NCBI GenBank assembly: GCA_902798825.1
Contig: CADBYI010000008.1
Location: 207-64,206 of the forward strand
Reading direction: 5' to 3'
DNA from: an uncultured Eubacteriales bacterium
Lineage (GTDB): Bacteria > Bacillota > Clostridia > Christensenellales > CAG-138
DNA: 64,000 bases
Shown here: positions 17,686 to 20,373 of the stretch, piece by piece
Numbering within the stretch: position 1 is the stretch's first letter
Layout of the letters: each line of letters opens with the position of its first letter
Made by a program: the position numbers and the translations under genes
The notes under the pieces: model-generated
What the model saw: the letters and a program-made list of their open reading frames with translations, nothing else
Told to the model about the DNA's origin: nothing
Databases searched by the model: none

Positions 17686-18696
17686 TTATTGGAGCCGCCG
17701 GATGGCCCGCTCCACGGCCTCCCGTCCCTCGCCGCCGACGATGCCCCACTCCTCCCGCATGAGACGCAGGACTTCCCGATAGGCTTCCACGGCGCCGGCT
17801 TTGTCGCCCTGGATCTCCCGGATGTGGGCGATGCACATGGCGCCATCGGTAAACTTGGGGGACGCTTGGAGCGCCAGACCCTTCTTGTACAGATCGACGG
17901 CCTTGTCATACTCCTGCCGCTGGGTGTAGATATCCCCCAGGACCAGGGACAGGCACCAGTCGTCCTCCAGGGCTTCCAGCTCTTTTAGCCGCTCATCCGC
18001 CTCGCCCTTACCTTCGGCCAGGGCGATTAAGTATCGATACATGGGGGTGCGGAAGGTGCTGTCGATGGCTGCCAGCTTTCCCAGCCAATTCTTGGCTTCG
18101 GTGAGGCGGCGGTCGTCGATCAGGTTGTCCAGCAGCCACATAATGGCGGCCCGGTTCTCGGGGTTCTTCTGGCAATACTCGCTGAGCCATTCGATGAGGG
18201 CGTGGTGGTTGCGCATGTTCCAGTCGGGGATGTAGCTGCCCCAGGCGTTGCACAGCTCGCTGATGGCGTCGGAATCTCCCTTCGTCTCCTCCACGGCCGT
18301 CTTGCCGTGCTCCACCGCCAGCAGCCGATACTGCTCGGCCTGGTTGTTGTATAGCTTGGCCAGCAGCAGCTCCGCCTGGCCCTTCAGCTCCGGCTTCTCC
18401 CCGAAGGCCCGCAGCTGCGCCTCCAGCTGCCGCTGCTCCGCCTCGTCGAAGAGACCCCTGTCGTAGATGCGGTTTTCGATCCGATCCATCTGCTGCTCCG
18501 GCGTCATGGCGAAGAGCTGGTCGATGCTGACGCCGAAGTATACGGCGATCTGGGGCAGCATCTGCACGTCCGGCACGCTGTTGCCGCACTCCCACTTGCT
18601 CACCGTCTGGGCGGTCACGTTCAGGGCCGCCGCCAGTCCCTCCTGGGTCAGGCCCCGATCCTGCCGCAGGCGGCGTATTTCCTTGCCCATTTCCAT
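17686..18696 (-). CDS. XRE-family HTH transcriptional regulator with TPR-like C-terminal domain
   Basis: N-terminus IRRLRQDRGLTQEGLAAALNVTAQTVSKWECG is a classic XRE HTH. About 270 aa of helical-repeat region follow. Confidence 0.85.
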   Translation of the reverse strand: MEMGKEIRRLRQDRGLTQEGLAAALNVTAQTVSKWECGNSVPDVQMLPQIAVYFGVSIDQLFAMTPEQQMDRIENRIYDRGLFDEAEQRQLEAQLRAFGEKPELKGQAELLLAKLYNNQAEQYRLLAVEHGKTAVEETKGDSDAISELCNAWGSYIPDWNMRNHHALIEWLSEYCQKNPENRAAIMWLLDNLIDDRRLTEAKNWLGKLAAIDSTFRTPMYRYLIALAEGKGEADERLKELEALEDDWCLSLVLGDIYTQRQEYDKAVDLYKKGLALQASPKFTDGAMCIAHIREIQGDKAGAVEAYREVLRLMREEWGIVGGEGREAVERAIRRLQ

Positions 18697-18746
18697 TTCC
18701 TTGTCCTCCTTGGTTTCGATGGCCTTAGCATAGCAGACCCGCAGCC

Positions 18747-18786
18747 AAAAAACCAGCGTCTCTCAAGGGAGAGGACTCTCCCGACG
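18747..18786 (-). terminator. intrinsic terminator 3' of the four-helix-bundle unit
   Basis: On the minus strand, hairpin cgtcgggagagtcctctcccttgagagacg followed by ctggTTTTTTgg. Confidence 0.6.
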
Positions 18787-18790
18787 GTTG

Positions 18791-18890
18791 AGCGAAAGCT
18801 AAATTGCCACTGCGCGGCAGCTGAATTCTGTGGCAAAGCCACAGAGCTAAATATGCCGAAGGCAAGCTAAATTCGCCCTTCGAGCGAAAT
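18791..18890. repeat. hairpin array L: 4-5 short GC hairpins spaced by AGCTAAATT-type 9-mers
   Basis: Layout: agcgaaagct aaatt | gccactgcgcggc | agctgaatt | ctgtggcaaagccacag | agctaaata | tgccgaaggca | agctaaatt | cgcccttcgagcg | aaataaagg. Confidence 0.8.
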
Positions 18891-18900
18891 AAAGGAAGAA

Positions 18901-19254
18901 TTAAAGCTTGCTCTTTGACGTGGTGACGGAGGAGATGAGCATGCGACGAAGGGTGCCGCAAGTGGAGCGAAGGGAAGCATAGCGTTCGTCGGGGAGAAAG
19001 GCTATGCGATTCAGCAGTTCCAGCCAGTACTCTGTTTCATAGCACTCTTTCAGAGCGATCTGCATCTTGGAAATGAAATCCGCCAGACTCTGGGCATACT
19101 TGGATTCGTGGATGTTAGCCCCTATAGAGGTCCCGCAGCGCATCAACTGGCCGGTCAGCACATACTCCCGCTTCTCGGCCTGAATGCCTCGGCACACGTT
19201 CACGATGTCCACCGCAAAGTCCTTAGCCCGATCCAGCATCACGCTTTCTGCCAT
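18901..19254 (-). CDS. four-helix-bundle protein (23S rRNA intervening-sequence protein / Avd family)
   Basis: 117 aa. The pattern FAVDIVNVCRGI...LTGQLMRCGTSIGANIHES...FISKMQIALKECYETEYWLELL matches the TIGR02436/PF05635-type family signature. Confidence 0.85.
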   Translation of the reverse strand: MAESVMLDRAKDFAVDIVNVCRGIQAEKREYVLTGQLMRCGTSIGANIHESKYAQSLADFISKMQIALKECYETEYWLELLNRIAFLPDERYASLRSTCGTLRRMLISSVTTSKSKL

Positions 19255-19267
19255 TTCCCATTCCTTC

Positions 19268-19369
19268 CTTTAGCTGCCGCGCAGCGGCAATTTCGCTCGG
19301 CGGCAGCCGCCGCCGAATTTAGCTCGTCGAAGACGAATTTATCTTCGCGCTTTGGCGCGAAATTTCACT
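19268..19369. repeat. hairpin array R: same unit type in inverted orientation (AATTTAGCT-type spacers)
   Basis: Layout: ctttagct | gccgcgcagcggc | aatttcgct | cggcggcagccgccg | aatttagct | cgtcgaagacg | aatttatct | tcgcgctttggcgcga | aatttcact. The first hairpin is the near-exact reverse complement of the one at 18806-18818. Confidence 0.8.
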
Positions 19370-19405
19370 CGATATAAAAAAGGCCTTGCGGCCTTTTTTA
19401 TATCG
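19370..19405. terminator. intrinsic terminator after pfkA (16-bp stem)
   Basis: cgatataaaaaaggcc-ttgc-ggccttttttatatcg; it overlaps the pfkA stop codon. Confidence 0.8.
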
Positions 19406-20373
19406 AGATGTCGTACGCCACCTTGTACATATAGGGGTCCAGGCCCTTCTTCATGGCCAGGGCCTCGTTGATGGGGATGGTGACGATGTGGGAGTCCCGG
19501 TAGCAGACCACCAGGTTGCTATGGCCGGCGGCCAGCTCCTCCACGGCGGTGTGGGCCATGCGGGCCGCCATGACCCGGTCCCGGCCCGTGGGGCTGCCGC
19601 CCCGGTTGGATATGGCCCAGGATGGACACCCGGGCGTCCACGCCGGTCTCCTCTTCGATGCGCTTGGCGATCTCGTTGCAGCGGCCCACGCCCTCGGCCA
19701 CCACGATGACGAAGTGGCGCTTGCCACGATAGCGGCCCTGGCGGACCCGCTCGATCACGTCCCGCTCAAAGTCCACCGGGAATTCGGGCACCAGGATGGC
19801 GGTGGCGCCTACGGAGAGGCCCACGTACACGGCCAGATGGCCCGCGTGCCGGCCCATGACCTCCACCACGCTGGCCCGCTCGTGGGACTGCATGGTGTCG
19901 GAGAGCTTGTCGATGCACTGGATGGCCGTGTTGGCGGCGGTATCGAAGCCGATGGTATAGTGGGAGCAGCCGATGTCGTTGTCGATGGTGGCAGGCACGC
20001 CCACGGTGTTGATGCCTGCGTTGGAGAGCTTTTGGGCCCCCCGGAAGGTGCCGTCGCCGCCGATGGCGATGACCCCGTCGATGCCTGCATAGTGGCAGGT
20101 GCGGACCGCCTGCTGGACCCCCTCGTCCGTGGTGAACTCCTTGCAGCGGGCGGTGTAGAGCATGGTGCCGCCCCGGCTGCTCAAATTGTTCACGGACCGG
20201 GCGTCCATCTCGAAGAAGTCGCCCTGGATGAGGCCGTTGTAGCCCCGGCGGATGCCTACGGGGGTGATGTTGTGCTGGAGGCAGCTGCGAACGGCGGAGC
20301 GAATGGCCGCGTTCATACCGGGGGCGTCGCCGCCGCTGGTGAGAATGCCGATACGTCTGACTTGTTTATCCAT
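19398..20373 (-). pseudogene. pfkA: ATP-dependent 6-phosphofructokinase with an apparent +1 frameshift near codon 257
   Basis: ORF 19519-20373 carries the PFK N-terminus (RIGILTSGGDAPGMNAAIR ... ILGHIQ) and then runs into non-PFK sequence. The conserved C-terminus (RGGSPTGRDRVMAARMAHTAVEEL ... YDISI) continues in another frame (ORF 19398-19727). The junction is at caa-CC-ggg (plus-strand GG at 19604-19605); removing one base restores GHIQRGGSP. Confidence 0.85.

Follow-up and report, generated by a model that had tools for sequence, protein, structure and literature searches.

A PF05635 four-helix-bundle gene set between mirror-image word and hairpin arrays, a probable partner of the orphan Gut-1 RNA motif

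The four-helix-bundle family PF05635/TIGR02436 is very large and has solved structures, but its function is known only within diversity-generating retroelements (DGRs). Members also lie inside some intervening sequences (IVSs) of 23S rRNA, as in Coxiella burnetii and Leptospira (the S23p open reading frame (ORF), PMC4990558), where the ORF is enclosed by a long stem formed from the ends of the element; why some IVSs carry an ORF has never been explained. The Gut-1 RNA motif (RF01706) has been an orphan since 2010, when it was described from human-gut metagenomes only, as a candidate small RNA not associated with any gene (Weinberg et al. 2010, PMC2864571). The locus analysed here lies in a 64-kb stretch (the window) of contig CADBYI010000008.1 from an uncultured Eubacteriales bacterium, where an intact PF05635 gene of 117 aa (18901-19254, minus strand) stands between two arrays of short words and hairpins. 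With a probability of about 0.5, this locus would represent a composite element that is widespread and combines a PF05635 gene with two-armed, mirror-image arrays, each module being a 7-9-nt word plus a variable mini-hairpin, and whose protein reads its own word. From these sequence comparisons, the PF05635 protein and Gut-1 are probably partners. The literature search returned no publication linking PF05635 with Gut-1 or with hairpin arrays, and no published function or partner for Gut-1.

The gene had been assigned to the four-helix-bundle family in a preliminary description of the locus, and profile searches bear this out (Pfam PF05635, 93.8 bits, E 9e-27, cut-off 33.8; NCBIfam TIGR02436 "four helix bundle protein", 106.3 bits, E 9e-31, cut-off 24). 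The family motif R-x3-S-x3-N-x2-E (PMC3936711) is present, with R39, S43, N47 and E50 invariant in the alignment, as are Q36, G45, A46, D59, K63, E70, E73 and W77. An AlphaFold2 model of the monomer has four helices (predicted local distance difference test score 96). In Foldseek its nearest structure is BT_0352 (2RLD; template modelling (TM) score 0.93-0.97, 47% identity, sequence E 8e-30), and Xcc0516 (2GSC; TM 0.74-0.77) and the DGR protein Avd (4DWL; TM 0.80, 13% identity) are also matched, together with the Avd chains of the DGR ribonucleoprotein 8UB7. BT_0352 and Xcc0516 are structural-genomics members of the family that share the fold and have no assigned function or ligand. Both crystal entries list chains A-E, and the deposited Avd entries likewise hold five Avd chains, A-E; the window protein, for which the prediction is of a monomer only, is probably a pentamer like these crystallised relatives. 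The Avd chains of 8UB7, which sit within an RNA-protein complex, provide a precedent for nucleic-acid recognition by this fold.

The match to Avd, alone and within the DGR ribonucleoprotein, is also what would be seen if the locus were a remnant or satellite of a DGR with the protein in the role of Avd. A related idea is a toxin-antitoxin or defence module made of repeat RNA and protein. In type III toxin-antitoxin loci, tandem RNA repeats stand upstream of a small protein gene, and the window locus resembles them in having tandem repeats 5' of such a gene. Both ideas are very improbable. Avd is strongly basic, whereas the window protein is near neutral and only 13% identical to it, and no reverse transcriptase is encoded among the neighbouring ORFs (PFK, glycogen synthase, nucleotidyltransferase, rRNA dimethylase and HTH-TPR regulator). 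No long direct repeat that could be a DGR template/variable pair was found in 18700-19420, the sole region scanned for repeats, and PADLOC and PHROG models gave no match for the protein. The housekeeping contexts and the gene-less arrays dispersed elsewhere would be ill-suited to a defence island.

Read on the gene strand, the locus has the layout 5'-[word-hairpin]x4 - ribosome-binding site (RBS) - ORF - [hairpin-antiword]x4-3'. The upstream (5') arm (19276-19370, minus strand) consists of the modules W1 (word 19361-19370, hairpin 19345-19360), W2 (word 19336-19344, hairpin 19325-19335), W3 (word 19316-19324, hairpin 19298-19312) and W4 (word 19289-19297, hairpin 19276-19288). On the plus strand, the words of this right array are AATTTCGCT (19289), AATTTAGCT (19316), AATTTATCT (19336) and AATTTCACT (19361); the array repeats the left-array pattern in reverse complement, and its stems are perfect over 4-7 bp. 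The downstream (3') arm (18793-18900, plus strand, corresponding to the antiword arm of the mRNA) has four modules followed by a AAATAAAGGAAG box, with the words AGCTAAATT (18797), AGCTGAATT (18819), AGCTAAATA (18845) and again AGCTAAATT (18865) and hairpins at 18806-18818, 18828-18844, 18854-18864 and 18874-18886 of the plus strand. Decay has gone further in this arm than in the upstream one, with one mismatch in each of two hairpins. The inverted constant-word/variable-hairpin arrays of the preliminary description are thus found where it had placed them, flanking the gene. Its conserved 9-mer before each hairpin holds in part: a word is present at these positions, but the words are heterogeneous (AGCT/AGAT/AGCG/GAGTG + AAATT). 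Allowing one mismatch, the word occurs 8 times in the whole window against a chance expectation of ~3, and 7 of these copies fall inside 550 bp at the locus.

A 29-nt inverted repeat (18797-18825 with 19269-19297, 90% complementary) encloses the ORF, joining the outermost left unit to the ORF-proximal right unit, whose complementarity had been noticed before. This repeat appears as a long-range helix in the minimum-free-energy fold, and the whole-transcript fold has a z-score of -6.7 against shuffles. The sequences adjoining the ORF, also earlier proposed to pair, were recovered in the repeat search as the boxes AAAGGAAG / CTTCCTTT. At the start codon, a leader (19255-19275) carries a fifth, degenerate word fused to the RBS (mRNA AGCUAAAGGAAGGAAUGGGAA-AUG) and can pair with 18883-18897 according to the inverted-repeat search. 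The same fusion of word and RBS is seen at a second locus of the genome (GTGAAAGGGGAAG) and in the congener G015 (AGTTGAGGAAGG).

The earlier analogy to ORF-bearing 23S rRNA IVSs is upheld by the shared protein family, encoded within a short element, and by the ORF-enclosing stem. Both kinds of element are also found in or behind a strongly transcribed stable-RNA or housekeeping unit and have a patchy, selfish-looking spread. However, IVSs sit in helix 25 or 45 of 23S rRNA, whereas the window element lies between pfkA and a regulator gene; no rRNA match was obtained within 18000-20000 in an Rfam search, as expected from the earlier placement of the locus outside rRNA. In addition, the IVS ends are a simple inverted repeat in place of modular arrays of words and variable hairpins, and the window element, unlike IVSs, has gene-less copies dispersed through the genome.

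The arrays had been thought to fit no described class, but this does not stand. The upstream arm (19285-19370, minus strand) matches Gut-1 with the model covered end to end (32.4 bits, E 2e-4), a score below the gathering threshold of 50 bits because its words have drifted to AGCUAAAU; the downstream arm gave no match on the plus strand even at E <= 10. The best Gut-1 score in the genome itself is 48.2 bits, the orthologous arms of G015 are above threshold (56.8 bits for the upstream arm, and 73.5 bits), and orthologous and paralogous arms of relatives reach 57-88 bits. The Gut-1 consensus is (GUGAAAU + hairpin) x3, and its hallmark, at least three variable hairpins with compensating stems split by a conserved heptamer, is present in the window locus with four modules per arm. 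Words of the GUGAAAU type that separate at least three covarying hairpins, and a gut or rumen habitat, are common to both. From profile match and module structure, the window arrays are established as diverged members of Gut-1. The motif was described as a one-armed, gene-free orphan, whereas in the window locus it makes up one arm of a dyad that is coupled with a protein gene, and the seed rows of Weinberg et al. 2010 (PMC2864571) already contain an unannotated, inverted right arm.

Further copies are found in the 2.28-Mb assembly to which the window belongs, which has ten Gut-1-like matches, eight array loci and two PF05635 genes, both of them between inverted arrays. The second gene (C6:6211-6552) is preceded by five GCGATAT+hairpin modules and followed by four ATATCGC modules. 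Convergent dyads that lack a gene and use GCGATAT words are present at C11:141.8k, C11:178.3k, C12:56.5k and C4:22.4k, and a small array of the same class that is not a dyad is found at C6:29.7k. A one-armed GTGAAATT array (C12:172, within C12:1-250) lies at a contig end and is closely followed by a promoter-like site and a tRNA gene. An initial scan for AAAT + hairpin returned the window locus only and was replaced by the Rfam search and a hairpin-chain scan; it had missed the other arrays because they use GCGATAT words. The hairpin-chain scan, which is unbiased and looks for shared linkers, gave just two word classes, GCGATAT and GTGAAAT/AGCTAAAT, with one cognate gene each. Homologous hairpins differ compensatorily between the copies of the genome (GATCC/GGATC, CATCC/GGATG, AAATCC/GGATTT).

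The association of gene and array extends well beyond this genome, to other Clostridia of gut and rumen. Of 61 genomes from the order, 14 have both PF05635 and Gut-1, 4 have PF05635 alone, 6 have Gut-1 alone and 37 lack both; the co-occurrence (18 genomes with PF05635, 20 with Gut-1) has a Fisher probability of 3e-6, uncorrected for phylogeny. Word arrays flank nearly all of the 26 four-helix-bundle loci examined in these relatives, and at least three words and at least three antiwords are present at nearly all of 80 further, independent loci obtained by scanning species-representative genomes. The pattern is therefore not unique to the window locus, since it recurs at the same site in one congener and at ~100 other loci. 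Nor is it a generic repeat: the units are dispersed, yet the repeat family is tightly linked to the PF05635 gene family.

The identity of the word follows the protein. The 16 closest homologues of the window protein (63-74% identity), among them proteins from metagenome-assembled genomes (MAGs) of Oscillospiraceae, Faecousia, Congzhengia and Ructibacterium, all have AGCTAAAT words, and the window word thus represents a proper class and not decay. On a tree of 100 proteins the word class changes 15 times (mean 55 and minimum 48 in 300 shuffles). Layout, by comparison, changes 9 times against 12.3 when shuffled, and is therefore labile. There are two layouts, A with the gene between the arms, as in the window, and B with the entire dyad 5' of the gene; in some clades the arrays are simply inverted heptamers and have no hairpins. 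On the evidence of this tree, co-diversification of word and protein clade can be regarded as established, and the window copy falls in the AGCTAAAT clade.

The same correspondence is seen between the arrays of a genome and its resident protein. A GCTAAAT x3 pattern occurs in 15 of 16 genomes with a AGCTAAAT-class gene, at up to ~28 places on many contigs, and in 6 of 33 genomes picked for other words, whereas a reversed-pattern control gave 0 everywhere. Among these exceptions, G096 (19 matches) has a 69%-identical gene between two GCTAAAT arrays and G097 (5 matches) a 71%-identical gene beside such arrays, both as predicted, and the matches in G087 are an unrelated tandem repeat. Of the array-free genomes, 19 were checked, and none of these has a protein more than 59% identical to the window protein. 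At genome level, the match of arrays to resident protein is accordingly established by pattern counts.

Two other explanations bear on this correspondence. In the first, the arrays are purely structural, either IVS-like and resistant to RNase III or 3'-exonuclease or acting as bidirectional terminators, and the four-helix-bundle gene is a passenger that recognises no word. This agrees with the 29-bp stem around the ORF, as in rRNA IVSs, with the persistence of arrays in some gene-free genomes, and with the position of arrays between convergent genes or behind terminators and tRNA genes, where they replace an ancestral bidirectional terminator. It leaves unexplained why words are constant within an array and across the arrays of a genome while hairpins vary, why the word follows the protein clade, and why arrays are found at essentially every member of the gene family examined; we consider it improbable. 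The second is linkage alone, which could yield the clade-word match if gene and arrays were inherited and mobilised jointly with no binding, and this weighs against a protein that reads its word, as do the points gathered further below.

The modules themselves have a strand-specific design. Perfect stems of at least 4 bp are found in 59% of 363 distinct inter-word segments, compared with 8% of shuffles. On the gene strand, the triloops of the word arm are C(UNC)G in 73 cases and C(GNA)G in 3, and the tetra-sized loops are C(UNNC)G in 26 and C(GNNA)G in 1. The antiword arm is mirrored (39 to 8 for triloops, 25 to 2 for the C(NNNN)G type), and an earlier set of loci gave a strand bias of 52 to 1. 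UNCG tetraloops were considered as an RNA signature and rejected, as the register of the stems gives triloops, C(UNC)G. Such a loop asymmetry would serve no purpose in duplex DNA, and the modules therefore act as RNA or single-stranded DNA, inverted as whole units between the arms. From the loop counts the strand-specific design is established; the strand bias of the loops and its mirroring between the arms point to a single-stranded functional form, most likely RNA. In RNAfold, the dyads form ladders of word:antiword helices with protruding hairpins.

The single-stranded form could also be DNA. In a selfish repeat system like that of repetitive extragenic palindromes (REPs) and their REP-associated tyrosine transposases (RAYTs), the modules would act on the lagging-strand template or as cruciforms, and the four-helix-bundle protein, alone or with host enzymes, would promote copying, the gene-bearing copy being the master and the gene-less dyads REPIN-like derivatives. 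The loops on the antiword strand, C(GNA)G and C(GNNA)G, are in keeping with this, as both are hyperstable mini-hairpin loops in DNA. The overall likeness to REP/REPIN and RAYT is considerable: a gene flanked by inverted copies of a short, palindromic, extragenically dispersed repeat, several repeat classes per genome, each with its own cognate gene (here a protein clade for each word class), and placement of repeats after stop codons or terminators. Arrays number up to 61-67 per genome against one gene, and are frequent at contig ends; they therefore break assemblies.

Comparison between congeners also reveals presence/absence polymorphism. The cassette directly follows pfkA in only two of 15 congeners (G000 and G015). 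The G015 protein is 74-75% identical to the window protein and is its sister on the tree (Shimodaira-Hasegawa-like approximate likelihood ratio test (SH-aLRT) support 96), and its upstream arm has four stems that all differ from those of the window with pairing kept. In G015 the left arm, RBS box included, is moreover duplicated directly as a gene-free copy ~510-770 nt past the pfkA stop (G015:C33, L099/L045), giving the order arm-gene-arm-right arm, with the duplicate between the four-helix-bundle gene and the right arm. Bracketing of the gene in this way suggests that it could be gained or lost via recombination between arms. Homology to the region upstream of the HTH-TPR gene in nine cassette-free congeners ends at 18790-18792, the edge of the left arm. 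A clean empty site for the window cassette was not found, since the HTH-TPR left flank has other neighbours in most congeners and the sole syntenic genome (G006) holds an unrelated 250-bp spacer at the site; therefore no target duplication can be defined for this cassette. The site of the second cassette is 85-189 nt long in seven congeners, with one bidirectional terminator and no array, and the site of a gene-less dyad is cassette-free in G016, with a single terminator. No target-site duplication is visible at these two sites, where the old terminator was replaced and not split. From these comparisons, gain and loss of cassettes between congeners are established.

The polymorphism and the duplicated arm fit copying in the manner of REP and RAYT, but several observations do not, and we regard this explanation as unlikely. 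RAYTs are Y1 transposases of the IS200/IS605 type, whereas the 117-aa helical bundle matches PF05635 alone in a Pfam search, with no nuclease, recombinase or Y1-transposase domain and no PADLOC or PHROG match, and no mobilisation chemistry can be proposed for it. No target-site duplication is seen, as ancestral terminators were replaced rather than interrupted. The copies in the genome have diverged, with compensation in their stems, and are old rather than the product of a recent burst. Unlike REPs, the arrays are built of tandem units, each made of a constant word and a variable hairpin, and the arms, unlike those of REPINs, have words but no hairpins in common.

Several observations bear on the spread of the arrays and are recorded here. 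Some Clostridia MAGs (G099 and others) have as many as 9-11 PF05635 paralogues per ~2-Mb genome, several with in-frame stops, which suggests ongoing birth and death of cassettes. The amplified Gut-1 arrays of G005 and G001 (L097, L105, L112, L113, L120, L122) are one-armed, and behind them come a terminator-like hairpin and, next, a further repeat (GCTTATCCCCTCAG ... GCTCCCCTT..AAGGGGAGC); they thus seem to spread inside a larger composite repeat. At L109 (G054) there are >15 tandem word+hairpin units with a two-unit super-period of ~41 nt (GTGATATT/GTTATATT), and expanded arrays of this kind could be mistaken by CRISPR finders for short-repeat arrays.

Under the composite-element reading, array and gene would share a transcript, co-oriented with a strongly expressed gene upstream, pfkA in the window and tRNA genes elsewhere. 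A tRNA gene ends at most 120 nt before the first word in 20 of 67 loci, and each of the 24 tRNA genes seen points the same way as the four-helix-bundle gene. In loci of the AGCTAAAT clade, the start codon follows ~30 nt after the last antiword, leaving no room for a promoter between array and start, and promoter-like sites with 11/12 matches were found upstream of the array in two of three loci scanned. The transcript would fold to a ladder of word:antiword helices with protruding hairpins and, in the window copy, an additional 29-bp stem would enclose the ORF, as in ORF-bearing 23S rRNA IVSs. The protein, probably as a pentamer, would recognise the repeated word displayed between hairpins; as the last word overlaps the RBS in the window copy, binding would feed back on translation of the protein itself. 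Dispersed gene-less arrays would offer further binding sites, and the unit would spread and decay like a selfish cassette. Binding of word by protein, the transcript as ligand, control at the RBS and processing of the IVS-like stem are all steps that we infer from sequence patterns. Of the three functions first suggested for the locus (selfish cassette, RNA-processing scaffold and protein-binding sites), the data favour protein-binding sites combined with a selfish cassette.

The following weigh against this reading. A sigma-70-like promoter was not seen in the window copy; with no promoter-like site and the cassette behind pfkA, read-through is the likeliest source of transcription. Where words deviate, the antiwords nested with them show no compensating change (9 informative dyads, Z 0.1, low power), and an excess of G.U over A.C on the sense strand is a trend only (10 to 4, p 0.18). 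The window protein has an isoelectric point of ~8 and is not basic, unlike phage Avd. Array length is variable and can exceed 15 units, giving no fixed 1:5 stoichiometry; the idea that five words per arm reflect a pentamer was rejected as a rule, with arrays ranging from 3 to >15 units. No protein of the clade was found in G093, G106 and G107, which have 1-2 AGCTAAAT arrays each, and no PF05635 gene in G001, which has 28 matches, although this genome is only 82% complete. Finally, other clades place the entire dyad ahead of a promoter, with the last antiword abutting its -35 box, an arrangement that suits control at the level of DNA equally well.

This last arrangement also fits an explanation in which the protein is an autoregulatory, iteron-binding regulator of double-stranded DNA, with words as operators, hairpins as spacers or terminators, and decoy sites elsewhere. 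In many layout-B loci of these clades (L039, L047, L051, L053, L056) the gene is driven by a good promoter whose -35 box adjoins the last antiword or overlaps with it, and words are conserved without pairing covariation. However, strand-specific loops and the strictly kept potential for hairpins have no role in duplex DNA, the arrays of the window clade are inside the transcript, between promoter and start codon, and layout A puts arms on either side of the ORF. The fold has no known DNA-binding motif and the protein is near neutral. We consider a regulator of this kind as improbable as the purely structural element.

A broader proposal goes beyond the window locus. PF05635 proteins in general may be sequence-specific word readers that co-evolve with their words clade by clade, forming a new class of self-propagating protein-repeat element that unites Gut-1, ORF-bearing 23S IVSs and the dispersed hairpin or heptamer arrays of many bacteria. 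This proposal is tentative, and we would put its chances somewhat below even. Such a class would correspond to the REP/RAYT relationship, but without an enzyme. The clade-word pairing gives PF05635, Gut-1 and ORF-bearing IVSs each a concrete, testable partner. Specific binding of words, if true, would add a compact, programmable recognition module to the folds known to bind RNA or single-stranded DNA, and would account for repeats of a kind that breaks up the MAG assemblies of Clostridia from gut and rumen.

The flanks of the cassette differ from their first description. A bidirectional terminator-like hairpin of pfkA (19368-19407, 18-bp perfect stem with A-run and T-run) does border the unit, abutting the first word, as had been claimed; its stem, however, takes in the last codons of pfkA. 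In a comparison of pfkA 3' ends in 15 congeners, this type of hairpin was found only in G000 and G015. On the other side, the cassette had been credited with its own terminator. The hairpin + T6 concerned (18745-18792, minus strand) is outside the cassette, 5' of the HTH-TPR regulator gene (17686-18696), and is kept with compensatory stem changes in nine cassette-free congeners, whatever the upstream neighbour. It serves as a terminator for the four-helix-bundle gene at this locus. The same hairpin may be a leader or attenuator of the HTH-TPR gene.

The neighbouring ORFs encode RrnaAD (rRNA dimethylase), a membrane protein, the HTH-TPR regulator, PFK, GlgA (glycogen synthase) and a nucleotidyltransferase, with pfkA and the HTH-TPR gene directly flanking the cassette. 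A second small repeat family is present in the genus, an ~88-nt element with a long A/T-rich hairpin (GCCGCTTTTTCTCTTC...GAAGAGGAAAAAGCGGC...AAAAAGAGAAGC). It is inserted in L220/L223 (G004, G010) with an apparent 7-bp duplication, TTTGCCG, is absent from this site in G007 (L218), and also occurs downstream of pfkA in L067, L069, L070, L071 and L075. In the window, pfkA (19398-20373) is broken into two overlapping ORFs near 19607 by one extra T, seen in comparison with three congeners (CCCCGGTTGGAT against CCCCGCTGGAT), which is either an error of the MAG assembly or a frameshift that this core gene of glycolysis acquired recently.

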